From the IMG/VR virus record IMGVR_UViG_3300027917_000018, positions 138,976 to 202,975 of that record: a stretch of 64,000 nucleotides of DNA, one strand, 5' to 3'. Position 1 is the stretch's first letter. The number at the start of each line of letters is the position of its first letter. Source of the DNA: a virus. Its lineage: Duplodnaviria > Caudoviricetes. A model generated the notes under the pieces. It was not told the origin of the DNA. It searched no databases and worked only from the letters and a program-made list of their open reading frames with translations. Of the stretch, positions 483 through 46,274 are shown piece after piece. The position numbers and the translations under genes were made by a program.

Positions 483-743
483 GTGAAGAGCTTGCTGGTC
501 ATCGCTCTTGTCCTTCTGGCGGGATGCACGACTTCATCCGAGAAGGGCAAAGTGACCCGGCATTACGTCTTCGGTTTCGGCGTGGTGACAGTTGACAGGG
601 CAGCGGCGCAGGCTGAAGTGCGCTCCGTGCGCGCCTTTGGCGTTTACGGTTCTGCGCAGCAGTTTGCAGCTGGATACGTGGACACCTTGTCGACACTGGT
701 GCCGGACGGAACAACGAACCTATTGATCGAAGTGCGCAAATGA
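483..743 (+). CDS. small lipoprotein
   Basis: MKSLLVIALVLLAG-C lipobox; GTG start preceded by GTAGTTAGG motif. Confidence 0.7.
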   Translation: MKSLLVIALVLLAGCTTSSEKGKVTRHYVFGFGVVTVDRAAAQAEVRSVRAFGVYGSAQQFAAGYVDTLSTLVPDGTTNLLIEVRK

Positions 744-27953: not shown

Positions 27954-28406
27954 TTAAGAATTTTGTGAACCAACAACCGCCTGAGCCCGTTTGACATGCT
28001 GAGCCATTTCCCAGCTCGTGGCCTTGGCCCGTTGGCGGTCGTAAAGCATGTGCCGAGCCTTGTCCTGGAGCTGGAACAGCCAGTCCTTGTCCTGTTCGGC
28101 GCGGCCCAGGGCTTTCTGGACTGCGTCGGGGTAATCCCGCCTCAGCTCGTGGCAAAAGGCGTTGATGGCCTGTTTCTTGGAATCGGGCAGATTCCAGTGA
28201 AAGCCTGGACTGAGCCCGGCCTTGGCCTGGGCGCGATCCGCAATGCTTTGCTCGATGCGGCGGGCGAGCTTCTTATCCCGGATGCGCCGGGACAGCTCGG
28301 CGTACTCCTGCTTCCACTGGGCCGTCCATGCCAGGTAGGAGGTTTTGTCGGTGAAGGGCGGGCTTGGCCACGTCCCGAACTTTTCCATGCGTTCTTCGTG
28401 TGTCAT
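27954..28406 (-). CDS. helical hypothetical protein coupled to pth2
   Basis: SYLAWTAQWKQEYAELSRRIR; ATGA overlap with the pth2 stop. Confidence 0.65.
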   Translation of the reverse strand: MTHEERMEKFGTWPSPPFTDKTSYLAWTAQWKQEYAELSRRIRDKKLARRIEQSIADRAQAKAGLSPGFHWNLPDSKKQAINAFCHELRRDYPDAVQKALGRAEQDKDWLFQLQDKARHMLYDRQRAKATSWEMAQHVKRAQAVVGSQNS

Positions 28407-28840
28407 AGGAGGTTCAACCGCCGGGTGATGTGTTGGACTTCGTGCTTCAATGAAGGACCGAACCCAAGGGCGGTGATCGTGGGACGGCCTTCAAAGAAAT
28501 CGGGGCAGCCGCTGTCGACTACCAGGAAGTGGGGCACGCCCGCCTCGGCCAGGGCATCCCTGGTCTTCAGCAGGCGTTGCAGGGAGGCTCCCAGGCAGAC
28601 TTTGGTGCCGGGGAGGTCCTGGGCATAGGCCCTGGCCGCCTCCGAGCCCTCAGTGGCCAAATACGCGCCGAGGTAGGCATGTCCTGCCTGCGAGGCGATC
28701 TTGCCTGGAGCCATACCCAGGTCGGTACGCACGACGGCGTACAGACGGAGGACGGGGTCGGGGATTTACGTGAAGTCGGAAGACACGTCACCCGAGGGGA
28801 TCGGGGACGGGGAACGGTCGGATACTTACGTGAATTTCAC
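28403..28840 (-). CDS. pth2: peptidyl-tRNA hydrolase (Pth2 family); frame holds two in-frame TAA (28826-28828, 28766-28768)
   Basis: RLYAVVRTDLGMAPGKIASQAGHA, VVDSG, TITALGFGP, ITRRLNLL. Family call is strong; start (28840, 28786 or 28732) is uncertain. Confidence 0.85.
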
Positions 28841-28879
28841 TGGGATGATCCTTAAGCTATCAGGCTGTCTTTGTCAAGC

Positions 28880-28954
28880 TGGCGCTGCTGGCGGGAGTTG
28901 AACCCGCAACACGGGAGGTTAAAGCTCCCTGCTCTGCCGTTGAGCTACAGCAGC
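28880..28954 (-). tRNA. tRNA with UUA anticodon (ochre-suppressor type), CCA encoded
   Basis: 75 nt: acceptor GCTGCTG/CAGCAGC-G-CCA; D stem GCTC/GAGC; anticodon stem GGGAG/CTCCC with loop CT-TTA-AC; T stem GCGGG/CCCGC with loop TTCAACT. Confidence 0.92.
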
Positions 28955-29406
28955 TTCAAAATCCTGGTTGTGCTGAAACCGGTCATGAGCGGGATGAAGC
29001 GGATTTCGCCGCCATTCTTGAGGACCACGTCGCGCTCCCCTTTGTCCACCGTGTCGATGTTGTAGTCGTCGCCCTTGACCCAAATGGCCGGGCAAACCGT
29101 ATCCAGAAAGCGCGTGGCGCGTTTACCGCGAAAGACATACACCCAGTCGACGCATTCAAGTCCGGCCACCACGAAGGCGCGCAGAGCGGCTGGAAAAATC
29201 GGGCGGTCCGGCCCCTTGAGCATCCTGACCGACCGGTCGTCGTTGATACCGACCACCAGCTGCATCCCAAGTTTACGGGCCTCCTGAAGGAAGTGGACGT
29301 GGCCTGGGTGGAGGATGTCGAAGCAGCCGTTGGTGGCGACAGTTGCATGCCGGGCGCTATTGAGGCGCAGTTCCCGCACGTTCGTCAGCAGCTTTGGATT
29401 GTCCAT
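28945..29406 (-). CDS. cytidylyltransferase-family protein (HldE/RfaE domain II-like adenylyltransferase)
   Basis: TNGCFDILHPGH, GINDDRSV, KGPDRP, KGDDY, GFSTTRI. Confidence 0.9.
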   Translation of the reverse strand: MDNPKLLTNVRELRLNSARHATVATNGCFDILHPGHVHFLQEARKLGMQLVVGINDDRSVRMLKGPDRPIFPAALRAFVVAGLECVDWVYVFRGKRATRFLDTVCPAIWVKGDDYNIDTVDKGERDVVLKNGGEIRFIPLMTGFSTTRILKLL

Positions 29407-43482: not shown

Positions 43483-43910
43483 CCGGCAAAGAACTGGCTG
43501 GACGTGTCCTCGAAGGCGAATCTCCCCGCGAGATTTTGCGCCGGATTGCGCGTACCAACCCGCCCCAGCCGCCGATGTCCGAGGTCGATTTTGATGTGGA
43601 GGCTGAAGAGGAATATGACCGGCCTGAAGGGCACTTCACCGAACCCGAAGACGTTGAGTGGGTTCGGGACCAGATCGAGGCAGGCAATGAGTGGGGCTGG
43701 TGTTCCGCGCACGTGATCGCGACCTGGACTGATCCCCTCACTTACCGGACCTATCAGGGCGACCAGTACCTGGGCGGCTGTTCCTACCGCAGCAAGCAGG
43801 ACTTCATGGAGCCTGGCGGCTACTATGACGACATGAAGGAAGAGGCTTACCAGGACCTGTTGCGCAACATCGAGGACACCTGGGAGCCGCCCGAGGACGA
43901 CGAGGAATAG
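43479..43910 (+). CDS. leader-family protein H, acidic
   Basis: MTGKELAGRVLEGESPREIL; YLGGCSY...GGYYDDM. Confidence 0.7.
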   Translation: MTGKELAGRVLEGESPREILRRIARTNPPQPPMSEVDFDVEAEEEYDRPEGHFTEPEDVEWVRDQIEAGNEWGWCSAHVIATWTDPLTYRTYQGDQYLGGCSYRSKQDFMEPGGYYDDMKEEAYQDLLRNIEDTWEPPEDDEE

Positions 43911-43913
43911 ATT

Positions 43914-46274
43914 ATGGCCACTGAGAGCACACTTCGATACCTCAAGTACGACTACCAGTCGCACAAGGACGCGCTGCTCCAGCGAGTCCGAAGCCGATGG
44001 CCGCTTGTCTGGAACGACTTCCTGAACAACAGCTTTGGCATCGTCCTGGTGGACATCATGGCCTGGTGTACGGCCACGATCGCTTTTCTGATTAACCGCG
44101 TGGCGGGCGAGCTTTTTGTCGGCTCGATGACGCTCCGTGAGTCCGCCGTGGCGCTAGGCCAGAATTACGGGTATCAGCTGCGCGGCCCGACTCCGGCTAC
44201 CGTGGCCTGTGAAGCGACGTTGACCAGCGTCCAGGCCGCCACGGTGACCATTCAGAAGGGCACACTTTTGCGGACCGCAGACGACAACGCGCTGCCCTTT
44301 GAGGTCGTTGAAGACTACATTATCGAGCCCGGCGAGCTTTCGCCCAAAGAGGTTGTTGTTCAGATCGCTCCCGGCCTCGCGGGCGCGAATACGCTGGCAA
44401 CCACGGCGGTCGTGACCAACGGCTCCAGCAACGTGGACCTGACAGACAGTGCCATTGACCTCAACCAGTACGTCGAGGCGGGCCAGACTTTCCAGGTCGA
44501 TGGCAGCGCCGACGAATACACAATCTACGCCGTTGAGGCGGCACCCGGCGCGGTCAGCAACAACCGTATCGTCCTGGCGGAGCCCTATACCGGGGCTTCG
44601 TCGGTTGTGAACGCTGCGGTCTACGACAAGCGCATCCTGCTGGTTCAAGGCCAAACCGTTAACGACCAGTACGTGTCCCCGGCGGGCGAAACGCCAAACT
44701 ACGCGGTTAAGCTCAGCCGGACGCCGGTCATCCAGGGCAGTGTTGAGGTTTTGGTCAACGATGAGGCGTGGAGCGAAACGCAGAACATCGCCGCCGAGGA
44801 CAGCGACGCGAAGGTGTTTGTCGTCAAGACCTTCGCCACGGGCGAGACGGTGATCGAGTTTGGCGACGATTCCTTTGGCGCGCAGATTCCGCCCGAGGCG
44901 GCGGTGGACATCGACTACCGGGTTGGCGGCGGAATCGACGGCAACGTTGAGCTGAACGCCATCAGTACCAGCGTTACGGGCCTGATCCAGAGCACGGCCA
45001 GCCCCGTCACCATCACCGTCATCAACAGCACGTCGCCCGGCCAGGGCGGGCGCGACGCCGAGACGCTGGAGGAAGCCCGGACCAACATCCCCTATTACGT
45101 CCGCACCAACGACCGGGCGGTCACGCTGGACGACTATCAGACGGTTACTCAGGGCTTCACGAGCGCCCAGTACGGCAGCGTGGCCTACGCCAGGGCCACG
45201 GTCAGGACCGAGAACGCGCTGCTGGAGGGCAATGTAGTCAGCATCTACGCTTGGACCACGGGGAGCGCGGGCGGCTTGGTGTCGCTGTCTCCGCAGCTCA
45301 AGCAGGCCGTGAAGGACTTCGTCCAAGGCAAGGCGGTGGGCACCGACTACGTGCAGATTTTGGACGGATCGGCGGTGCCGGTTCCGCTAAGCCTGCGCTT
45401 CAAAGTTCTGAGCGGCTTCAGTGTCACGGACACGGCGCAGCTCGTAAACGATACCATCACAGCCACCGTCAATACGCTTCGGCCAGGCCAGCCGCTCATC
45501 TACTCGAACTTTGTCCGCAGCCTCGATGAGGTCTTTGGTGTCGATACGGTCAACATGGCCACGCCGACCAGCGACCTTTATCCCAGCACGTCAACGGAGC
45601 TGTTTACGATTCCGCAGCCGGATTACGTTTACACACTGACGCGTGACGGTGTGGGAAATCCCGTTTACAGCGCCACCGACGGAACAAACATCAGCCTCTA
45701 CCAGGCGCAGCTCCCGGTGTTCCCGCTGGAGGCGTGGTCTTTCAGGCTGTTCCTCGGCAGCAATGAGCTGACTGTTGTGCCCGGTTTGATCCCCGGCGAG
45801 GCGTTGCTCCTGGGCAGTAACCTGAGCGTAAACACCACACGGGTCGACGGTGTTTACATTTACAGCTCCACGGTCAACTTGCTCACAGGCAGGGTAAATC
45901 TCTGGCTGGTCGGTGCTCCGGGCGATCTGACGATGAAGCTCGTGCCGGTGACGGGCTATGCCACCGAGCGTGTGGTCGACGTTTACGTTGGCTACGAGGG
46001 AGACAACAGCCAGACCAAGCGCCGCGAGATTCGCGCCGCGATCCGGGCTTGGAGCGACGGCCTCACTGTGGGCGGCACGATGTACGGCGTTCAGGTGGCT
46101 GGCGTAACCAGCAGCCGGTCCTGTATCGAGGAGGTTGTTTCGTCCGTGGACGGTGTTGATGTGGTCAACCGTGTGGCCTTGGATACCCCGGCCAATACCG
46201 CTGACCGGATCACGGCCATCGATTTTGAGCTGTTGCGCGTTGGAAACGTCGTTCTCAATAATCAGATCGACTGA
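43914..46274 (+). CDS. baseplate wedge protein (T4 gp6 / baseplate J-like)
   Basis: N-terminal DYQSHK...WNDF...E.F..S..LRES...GY; FGDDSFG; YRVGGG; GGRDAETLEEAR; RAVTLDDY. Confidence 0.88.
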   Translation: MATESTLRYLKYDYQSHKDALLQRVRSRWPLVWNDFLNNSFGIVLVDIMAWCTATIAFLINRVAGELFVGSMTLRESAVALGQNYGYQLRGPTPATVACEATLTSVQAATVTIQKGTLLRTADDNALPFEVVEDYIIEPGELSPKEVVVQIAPGLAGANTLATTAVVTNGSSNVDLTDSAIDLNQYVEAGQTFQVDGSADEYTIYAVEAAPGAVSNNRIVLAEPYTGASSVVNAAVYDKRILLVQGQTVNDQYVSPAGETPNYAVKLSRTPVIQGSVEVLVNDEAWSETQNIAAEDSDAKVFVVKTFATGETVIEFGDDSFGAQIPPEAAVDIDYRVGGGIDGNVELNAISTSVTGLIQSTASPVTITVINSTSPGQGGRDAETLEEARTNIPYYVRTNDRAVTLDDYQTVTQGFTSAQYGSVAYARATVRTENALLEGNVVSIYAWTTGSAGGLVSLSPQLKQAVKDFVQGKAVGTDYVQILDGSAVPVPLSLRFKVLSGFSVTDTAQLVNDTITATVNTLRPGQPLIYSNFVRSLDEVFGVDTVNMATPTSDLYPSTSTELFTIPQPDYVYTLTRDGVGNPVYSATDGTNISLYQAQLPVFPLEAWSFRLFLGSNELTVVPGLIPGEALLLGSNLSVNTTRVDGVYIYSSTVNLLTGRVNLWLVGAPGDLTMKLVPVTGYATERVVDVYVGYEGDNSQTKRREIRAAIRAWSDGLTVGGTMYGVQVAGVTSSRSCIEEVVSSVDGVDVVNRVALDTPANTADRITAIDFELLRVGNVVLNNQID

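Follow-up and report, generated by a model that had tools for sequence, protein, structure and literature searches.

Why should a phage that uses the standard genetic code carry, as its only tRNA, one that reads a stop codon? The question was raised by a DNA stretch of 64,000 nt (hereafter the window, meaning the whole stretch that was analysed), which forms the last 64 kb of the 202,975-bp IMG/VR record IMGVR_UViG_3300027917_000018, a sediment phage estimated to be 89% complete. The sole tRNA of this 203-kb record is a suppressor-type tRNA with the anticodon UUA. Comparison of the locus with its relatives suggests that this tRNA is quite probably a dedicated, functional ochre suppressor, which is kept for one client, the gene of the predicted peptidyl-tRNA hydrolase PTH2. 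The elements concerned are listed here with the evidence for each; L084 and L166 are related loci that are described below.

28880-28954, minus strand: tRNA of 75 nt, anticodon UUA (ochre-suppressor type), G73, encoded CCA (ARAGORN, Rfam, covariation)
28826-28840, minus strand: leader mini-ORF GTG-AAA-TTC-ACG with the first in-frame TAA at 28828-28826 (sequence; homologous leaders in L084 and L166)
28769-28825, minus strand: 19 codons between the stops (VSDRSPSPIPSGDVSSDFT), ending TTC-ACG (translation; aligns with the L166 leader VFDSVSSPIPTVELSSNFT)
28766-28768, minus strand: second in-frame TAA, 60 nt after the first and in the same 9-mer TTC-ACG-TAA (sequence)
28403-28765, minus strand: PTH2 body, 120 codons from ATC 28765, with TGA at 28405-28403 (Pfam PF01981, 2zv3 alignment)

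The UUA tRNA is well formed and apparently under selection

A single tRNA call was made by ARAGORN in the window (tRNA-Stop, anticodon tta, 28880-28954, minus strand), and the same segment matched Rfam RF00005 with 66 bits (gathering score 29, E 3.8e-12, model positions 1-71). A preliminary description of the locus had placed the tRNA at 28872-28954; that range does contain it but also takes in a TTGACA hexamer, the tRNA proper being 28880-28954. The cloverleaf consists of an acceptor stem GCUGCUG/CAGCAGC, a D stem GCUC/GAGC with the D loop AACGGCA, an anticodon stem GGGAG/CUCCC, a variable loop GUGUU and a T stem GCGGG/CCCGC with the T loop UUCAACU, followed by G73 and an encoded CCA. The perfect 5-bp anticodon stem, which had been taken to fix the 7-nt loop as C-U-UUA-A-C, was borne out by the sequence and by ARAGORN, and the loop carries U33 and a purine at position 37. 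The pair G1-C72, G73, the short variable loop and the CCA, which had been listed as well, could be read directly from the sequence. All 21 pairs of the 7/4/5/5-bp stems are Watson-Crick, and the conserved tertiary nucleotides U8, A14, G18-G19, U33, G53-U54-U55-C56 and A58 are present.

The tRNA was then compared with those found beside PTH2 in related loci (cassette tRNAs). T8, A14, TTC and A57/58 were invariant in the alignment. Among 34 cassette tRNAs, 96.8% of the cells of the cloverleaf were paired, compared with 34-46% in controls with slid partners; changes on both sides of a pair were found at 20 of the 21 pairs, and the observed values were reached by none of 500 shuffles. A contig from a separate sample and study was identical to the window over 28380-29000, indicating that the sequence is not an assembly slip. 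In a variant strain from a third study (a 2025 sediment metagenome), 8 substitutions and a 4-nt insertion were found, all within the 29-nt spacer 28851-28879, and neither the tRNA nor the first TAA was changed. The anticodon, on which the preliminary description had made its case depend, was thus the same in the independent contig and in the variant strain. Given the Rfam score, the compensatory changes in L084 and in the 34 cassette tRNAs, and a variant strain that differs only in the spacer, the window tRNA appears to be a real gene under selection. An exact search of viral contigs for the tRNA core gave no hit, and when 10 kb of the window was compared with cultured phages by megablast no match was obtained.

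Two in-frame UAA codons lie in front of the PTH2 body

The leader starts 39 nt downstream of the tRNA on the same strand. The bases after its two TTC-ACG-TAA stops are G or A, and after the second TAA the frame reads ATC-CCC-GAC-CCC-GTC-CTC-CGT-CTG-TAC-GCC-GTC-GTG..., into PTH2. No ATG, GTG or TTG is found in the window frame between the second TAA and the first beta-strand, LRLYAVV. The product matched Pfam PF01981 with 64.5 bits (cut-off 23), and the ORF as called from GTG 28732 enters the profile at position 7. Residues 2-115 of Methanocaldococcus jannaschii Pth2 (2zv3) correspond in the alignment to residues 7-120 when the frame is counted from the codon right behind the second TAA, so that the match of PTH2 to 2zv3 runs from one end to the other if the part 5' of GTG 28732 is added. 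Full-length homologues that are not preceded by a stop begin MSSDPTLRLYAVV..., MSSDPTLRLYAVVR... or MSSSPVPDPTLRLYALVR.... The 2zv3 alignment, the start of the Pfam match and the starts of these homologues together indicate that the first beta-strand is coding.

The arrangement stands out within the genome. Among 260 genes, PTH2 ranked first for coding-like sequence between the upstream in-frame stop and the called start, and the word AC(G/A)-TA(A/G)-purine-T in frame before a gene was found only at PTH2. The body itself is open and conserved in relatives, with 27 invariant columns; the motifs GK..SQ..HA and VDSG of the predicted hydrolase were invariant in 34 PTH2 homologues. The phage PTH2 proteins form a branch of their own, with motifs such as VVDSGC and TALGFGP, and share about 30-38% identity with the forms that have been solved or that come from cultured phages. 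These results suggest that, with two UAA codons upstream, a gene that requires the reading of UAA exists for the tRNA.

Relatives share the gated layout

A database search for PTH2 with the 120-aa frame as query gave 280 homologues, which fell into two length classes: 103-109 aa, starting at the internal Met of DLGM, and 117-126 aa, full length. Gene callers evidently cut the gated PTH2, that is, PTH2 preceded in frame by a leader with a stop, at this internal Met, leaving proteins of 103-109 aa in public records. Single-sequence searches of viral contigs with PTH2 and with the DNA polymerase returned nothing. Profile-guided scans of viral and metagenome contigs added 109 loci, and after the removal of duplicates 94 gated loci were obtained.

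The closest diverged relative was L084, a sediment contig from JGI whose PTH2 is 80% identical and whose gene order is the same. Its UUA tRNA has kept the loop CUUUAAC, G73 and CCA, while its acceptor, anticodon and T stems have changed in a compensatory manner. PTH2 again has no start after the two ACG-TAA stops, which are in frame with it at a spacing of 57 nt (60 in the window). In L084 a 69-aa ORF with a zinc-ribbon-like CxxC...CxxC pattern (L084:2683-2892) leads to the first TAA, and read-through would fuse it to PTH2. A Cys-rich N-terminal extension without a stop was also seen in the PTH2 of phage phiM12 (L163).

The 94 distinct loci share a common layout: a short leader, usually ended by Thr, an in-frame stop, a purine, and PTH2. 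The leaders most often have 2 codons (M-T, 34 loci), 4 codons (22) or 5 codons (13). Thr precedes 82 of the 108 stops (ACG 61, ACA 20), and 85 stops are followed by G, 21 by A and 2 by C. As first codon behind the stop, mostly GTT (51), GTA (13) or ATT (9) is found; GTG and ATG do not occur there. In 80 of the 94 loci a canonical start is absent between the last stop and strand 1, and 14 loci, the window included, have two stops of the same type in series. A suppressor tRNA on the same strand was present in the fetched flank of 60 of the 94 loci, mostly 150-800 nt upstream of the PTH2 GK motif, with a few just downstream. In several relatives ARAGORN also called tRNA-like genes with 4- or 2-base 'anticodons' (gcaa, gtaa, ct) beside PTH2, at L090:3880-3959, L098:2281-2357, L108:2852-2929 and L109:2902-2980.

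The leader stop follows the anticodon

We were particularly interested in whether stop and anticodon agree within each locus. A TAG leader was accompanied by a CUA tRNA in 58 distinct loci and a TAA leader by a UUA tRNA in two, the window phage and L084; no mismatch was found where both could be read. The leader of L166, which has 62% PTH2 identity and a CUA tRNA upstream, reads MQDT-TAG-VFDSVSSPIPTVELSSNFT-TAG-VPDPTLRLY, and its counterpart in the window reads (M)KFT-TAA-VSDRSPSPIPSGDVSSDFT-TAA-IPDPVLRLY. In the PTH2 tree the window and L084 form a pair (99/77), their sister is the TAG-gated L085 (91/83), and all lie inside a clade (97/85) of 22 TAG rows. Because the window and L084 nest inside this supported TAG clade, the TAA/UUA state appears to have arisen from TAG/CUA; the change takes three transitions, of which one falls in the anticodon and the others in the two stops.

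The third stop codon was found in a cultured jumbo phage. Atu_ph07 has a single suppressor tRNA, with the anticodon UCA (PMC6102473). In frame before its PTH2, gp256, lies MIGEHF-TGA-INYEELGYETEEQFVEASDKLRIYSIVRDD (L162:1501-1545), and the matching UCA tRNA was verified. Phosso, a relative of Atu_ph07 and likewise a cultured jumbo phage, has MKY-TAG-VEEK...NKLRIYSIIRGD at protein 267 (L280:650-740) and a CUA tRNA 4.6 kb upstream. Both gp256 and protein 267 are annotated from an internal Met, and the in-frame leaders lie upstream of it. The PTH2 genes of XacN1, Xoo-sp13, phiCbK, phiM12 and Myrna have ordinary starts and encode more canonical forms, indicating that not every phage PTH2 is gated. 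Taken as a natural compensatory-mutation experiment, the co-variation across UAG, UAA and UGA argues for a real partnership between tRNA and gene.

The phage uses the standard code

With our own codon-model gene caller, code 11 gave 260 genes covering 93% of the DNA, with the stops TGA 128, TAG 66 and TAA 66. Coding density was 0.935 under code 11 and fell to 0.917 when TAA, and to 0.915 when TAG, was treated as sense. TAA with coding-like sequence over 50 codons on both sides occurred once in the genome (TAG 6, TGA 4), and genome scans revealed no other gene with a conserved internal TAA. The phage uses the standard code and is not recoded, and PTH2 is the only clear client. The preliminary description of a well-formed suppressor-type tRNA thus holds for a phage of standard code, and a suppressor tRNA alone should not be taken as evidence of an alternative code. 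A second possible client lies outside the window, at G000:C1:40990-41296, where MSTGTT-TAA is followed by 24 open codons and a weakly scored 67-aa ORF, which may be a spurious call. No match to tRNA-synt_1c (glutamyl/glutaminyl), tRNA-synt_2 (aspartyl/asparaginyl/lysyl) or tRNA-synt_1b (tryptophanyl/tyrosyl) was found in the record, whose completeness of about 89% leaves their absence unproven, and in the same incomplete record no release-factor domain (RF-1) was matched.

Read-through at gene ends was also considered. Extensions of at least 60 codons follow 14 of 66 TAA stops and 25 of 128 TGA stops. Eight junctions in G000:C1, for example window 43908-43916, have a TAG-ended gene followed by an in-frame start after exactly 3 nt; wobble of the UUA tRNA on UAG, if it occurs, could conceivably give rise to fusion proteins at such junctions, at a low level. 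The longest ORFs that are preceded in frame by TAG-ended genes were tried as a sign of recoding and rejected: the junctions have their own ribosome-binding sites and starts, and the in-frame excess (11 of 21 short junctions) was not significant. A separate observation is the word GTAGTTA(A/G)G, which stands just 5' of many starts in any frame and sometimes provides the stop of the preceding gene (window 483-500 and G000:C1:59840-59860, for example).

A possible mechanism and its alternatives

In the mechanism that we propose, a host synthetase would charge the phage tRNA, which would compete with release factors at both UAA codons and insert a residue in the non-conserved linker. Full-length PTH2 would then be made only while the tRNA is active, and with two stops in series its output would follow roughly the square of the read-through efficiency. 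The gate would probably extend to the 150-aa gene, whose start overlaps the stop of PTH2. A 3' purine favours suppression by a classical rule, and the ACR-stop-purine context of the leaders fits that rule. As for purpose, our preferred guess is that the leader stops gauge release factor against suppressor, so that the hydrolase would be made in step with read-through or poor termination; alternatively or in addition, the gate may serve as a timer for the PTH2 operon.

A more far-reaching version, which we put forward tentatively and think rather improbable, is that the cassette is a self-contained sensor of termination capacity, with the phage tRNA as a fixed competitor for release factors. 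If so, slow or blocked release, such as a host defence or a toxin that attacks translation might cause, would lead to more read-through, and the output, PTH2 and its 150-aa partner, would restore tRNA recycling, giving a phage analogue of prfB feedback made up of a tRNA, two stop codons and PTH2. The free switching among UAG, UAA and UGA would then mean that the act of reading a stop matters and not the codon.

Several points weigh against a dedicated suppressor. The switch to TAA/UUA is a single event, the window phage and L084 being sisters, so the co-variation amounts to a few independent switches and a large TAG/CUA majority. Thirty TAG-gated loci have no suppressor tRNA in the fetched flank, either because the contigs are short or because the tRNA lies elsewhere in the genome; three TAG-leader records without a flank tRNA (G003, G005 and G001) do have a CUA tRNA elsewhere in the record. 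GTG 28787-28785, 6 codons 5' of the second TAA, is a possible start, lacking a good Shine-Dalgarno sequence; were it used, only one UAA would need reading. A start at GTG 28732 could yield a truncated PTH2 that lacks most of strand 1. Moreover, TAA closes 66-68 genes of the phage itself, and TAG, which the UUA tRNA would perhaps also read, closes about 65. Since about half of the phage genes end in TAA or TAG, an efficient suppressor should be costly, and the efficiency is probably low. Finally, charging and suppression are predictions from sequence comparison.

The same gene ends give some ground for a general-purpose suppressor, which would cause read-through at many phage or host stops, whether for C-terminal extensions, fusions, sabotage of the host or as a first step of recoding, with PTH2 as one target or a safety device. 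The UUA anticodon would meet all those TAA ends and perhaps the TAG ends, the eight 3-nt junctions would offer in-frame fusions, and Borges et al. (bioRxiv 10.1101/2021.08.26.457843) report a standard-code phage that has a suppressor tRNA and might represent a forerunner of recoding. However, long extensions are no commoner after TAA than after TGA, the in-frame junctions are not significantly enriched, and the conserved internal TAA is confined to PTH2; the tight linkage to PTH2 and the co-variation over the 94 loci indicate a specific client, and we regard the general role as unlikely. A genome-wide change of TAA alone, or of TAA together with TAG, to an amino acid, as in recoded phages or ciliate-type codes, has in its favour that the suppressor is the phage's only tRNA. 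It is close to untenable, given that coding density is highest under code 11, that 66-68 genes end in TAA, that coding-like flanks are rarer around TAA than around TAG or TGA, and that no release-factor gene was found in the record.

Other explanations leave the tRNA out of the reading of the leader. An ordinary mini-ORF followed by re-initiation at a non-canonical codon would suit the very short leaders, of 2-5 codons in most loci. It would also suit the triplet behind the stop, which is ATC in the window and GTT in the majority of relatives, and which with few exceptions is one of GTT, GTA, ATT and ATC, each a single base off a start. Yet the type of stop is irrelevant to re-initiation and still follows the anticodon through all three stops; the 14 loci with two stops of one type would be left unexplained, and GTG and ATG never occupy the +1 position. 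Re-initiation is therefore given very little probability. Only slightly less credit can be given to an uncharged or poorly charged decoy, an idea raised in the preliminary description, which would sit in the A site at UAA, slow the release factors and raise the peptidyl-tRNA drop-off that PTH2 would clear. PTH2 does adjoin the tRNA, and the identity elements are incomplete for any one synthetase (by E. coli rules, G73 and U35 come without matching tRNA-Gln acceptor pairs). But EF-Tu brings aminoacylated tRNA to the ribosome, making an uncharged tRNA a poor competitor, and cloverleaf, T loop and CCA end are preserved just as they are in functional elongator tRNAs. Ribosomes could not pass two UAA codons into a gene without another start codon, since productive reading of the PTH2 stops requires an inserted residue, and the decoy leaves unexplained the in-frame stops that match the anticodon here and in relatives. 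The link to peptidyl-tRNA hydrolase suspected in that description appears real but runs in the reverse direction: PTH2 would be the client gene of the tRNA and not merely the cleaner of its by-products. Decay might be suggested by the shortened proteins of 103-109 aa in many records: nonsense mutations would have turned PTH2 into a pseudogene, and the tRNA would be a relic or have mutated from a sense tRNA. Decay is hardly credible for stops that keep their place and context throughout the 94 distinct loci, before a body that is open and conserved; the spacing between the two TAA codons shifts by a whole codon between relatives (60 and 57 nt), and the tRNA evolves by compensatory change. Translational bypassing from ACG to ACG in the style of T4 gene 60 was also tried and rejected, given that the landing site again lies before TAA and that most relatives have a single stop.

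The inserted amino acid

Under the proposed suppression, a residue has to be supplied by charging of the tRNA. When the isotype was sought among 252 unique phage tRNAs, of which 193 are not suppressors, the nearest non-suppressor was an Asn tRNA (identity 0.75, from a Vibrio phage, with a similar 5' half), followed by Arg(UCU) at 0.74 and Gln at 0.70, and no call could be made from the sequence; the preliminary description had likewise called the amino-acid identity unclear. With blastn against phage genomes, matches of about 75% at best were obtained, to tRNA-Gly, Asn, Thr, Arg and Trp. The discriminator base among cassette tRNAs was A in 29, G in 19 and U in 1. In E. coli, GlnRS or LysRS tends to be the charging enzyme of amber and ochre derivatives that have U35. 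By E. coli identity rules G73 favours Gln, and the pairs G1-C72, C2-G71 and U3-A70 of the window tRNA are not like those of tRNA-Gln. Guessing from U35, we would give Gln about a third of the probability and Lys about a fifth. Because the stops sit in a non-conserved linker, the identity of the residue may not matter.

Comparison with known stop-reading systems

In recoded phages, suppressor tRNAs read TAG as Gln and TGA as Trp, and TAA suppressors were tallied without any TAA recoding being described, suppressors being treated within genome-wide recoding (Borges et al., bioRxiv 10.1101/2021.08.26.457843). As in those phages, a phage tRNA would read a stop in a standard-code host, and in-frame stops would make genes dependent on it. 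Recoded phages, in contrast, have hundreds of in-frame stops in late genes and a low density under code 11, whereas here the code is standard and there is one client operon, with two leader stops and a UUA anticodon. XacN1 is a standard-code jumbo phage with two CUA suppressors whose target genes its authors could not identify (PMC5852040), and the papers on XacN1 (PMC5852040) and Atu_ph07 (PMC6102473) each list a peptidyl-tRNA hydrolase gene. The window phage resembles both in having a suppressor tRNA without signs of recoding. The PTH2 of XacN1 has a normal start and is not gated, leaving its suppressors without an explanation, while that of Atu_ph07 is gated by TGA.

The release factor 2 gene prfB is autoregulated through an early in-frame UGA, which is passed by a +1 frameshift. 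The PTH2 leader resembles it in that an early in-frame stop would tie the output of a peptide-release enzyme to termination efficiency; unlike in prfB, the frame is kept, the phage supplies the tRNA, and the gated enzyme works off the ribosome. Dedicated tRNAs also read stops gene-specifically in the case of tRNA-Sec at UGA and tRNA-Pyl at UAG. The likeness to Sec and Pyl lies in a dedicated tRNA that would read an in-frame stop in few clients while the same codon ends other genes. The differences are that the record gave no match to the three synthetase families or to RF-1, and that the codon read lies in a variable linker and not at a catalytic position. We know of no special elongation factor or cis element for the PTH2 cassette.

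The E. coli ochre suppressors supB (tRNA-Gln), supC (tRNA-Tyr) and supG/supL (tRNA-Lys) read UAA, and UAG by wobble, and are tolerated through their low efficiency. They share with the window tRNA a UUA anticodon in an otherwise normal tRNA. They are, however, single mutants of host sense tRNAs, whereas the window tRNA is a natural, conserved phage gene without a close sense parent (at best 75%, a phage tRNA-Asn), apparently descended from a CUA cassette tRNA. As for the client, it matches archaeal and eukaryotic Pth2 (PF01981; PDB 2zv3, 1rzw, 1wn2, 1xty and 1q7s) over its whole length; unlike these, the phage forms, which are predicted hydrolases, stand on their own branch with their own motifs.

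A full-text literature search found no paper linking PTH2 to a suppressor tRNA. Suppressor tRNAs recur in large standard-code phages, and their targets are an open question; for the window tRNA there is a concrete, conserved client. The window adds an ochre case with two stops and an amber ancestry and, together with Atu_ph07 and Phosso, co-variation over all three stops. Given that two cultured phages, Atu_ph07 and Phosso, have the layout, it can be tested at the bench. The compact unit of tRNA and leader could also serve as a small orthogonal translational gate.

Neighbouring genes and signals

The remaining features around the cassette are as follows.

28945-29406, minus strand: cytidylyltransferase-like gene, 153 aa, with its last 3 codons and TAG inside the first 10 nt of the tRNA (Pfam PF01467 CTP_transf_like, 63.4 bits)
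28872-28877, minus strand: TTGACA hexamer, a possible but unproven -35 box, 2 nt after the CCA
28849-28854, minus strand: TAAGGA, a Shine-Dalgarno-like word 8 nt 5' of the leader GTG (sequence)
27954-28406, minus strand: 150-aa gene whose ATG overlaps the PTH2 stop (ATGA) (ORF list)

The 10-nt overlap between the 5' end of the tRNA and the end of the upstream coding sequence, which had been pointed out in the preliminary description, is real: the TAG of the cytidylyltransferase-like gene (28947-28945) is U8-A9-G10 of the tRNA. The relative L084 has the same overlap, and it is seen in only 6 of 56 distinct cassette tRNAs. Because U8-A9-G10 spells TAG in most tRNAs, the overlap is probably incidental, a lineage quirk outside the design of the cassette. 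If the two were co-transcribed, the RNase P cut would fall 7 nt 5' of the cytidylyltransferase stop. When relatives were sought through the cytidylyltransferase gene, 80 loci were obtained, none with a suppressor tRNA and none close kin.

The TTGACA that had been noticed 2 nt past the CCA is indeed present (28877-28872). It lies 31 nt 5' of the leader GTG in the window and 30 nt 5' of it in L084, a similar spacing that hints at a promoter. In a scan for the sigma-70 consensus around the tRNA no full promoter was found, TTGACA having no acceptable -10 partner.

On the other side of PTH2, the 150-aa gene gave no lead in Pfam, PHROG or Atlas. Its N-terminal part of about 40 residues (MTHEERMEKFGTWPSPPFTDKTSYLAW...) recurs directly behind PTH2 in 43 related loci. 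Because its ATG overlaps the PTH2 stop, the gene is probably translationally coupled to PTH2 and hence gated too. A response-regulator receiver-domain gene (PF00072; L083:1-241 and L084:1-85) is conserved a few genes away both in the window phage (about 31.4-31.9 kb, plus strand) and in L084.

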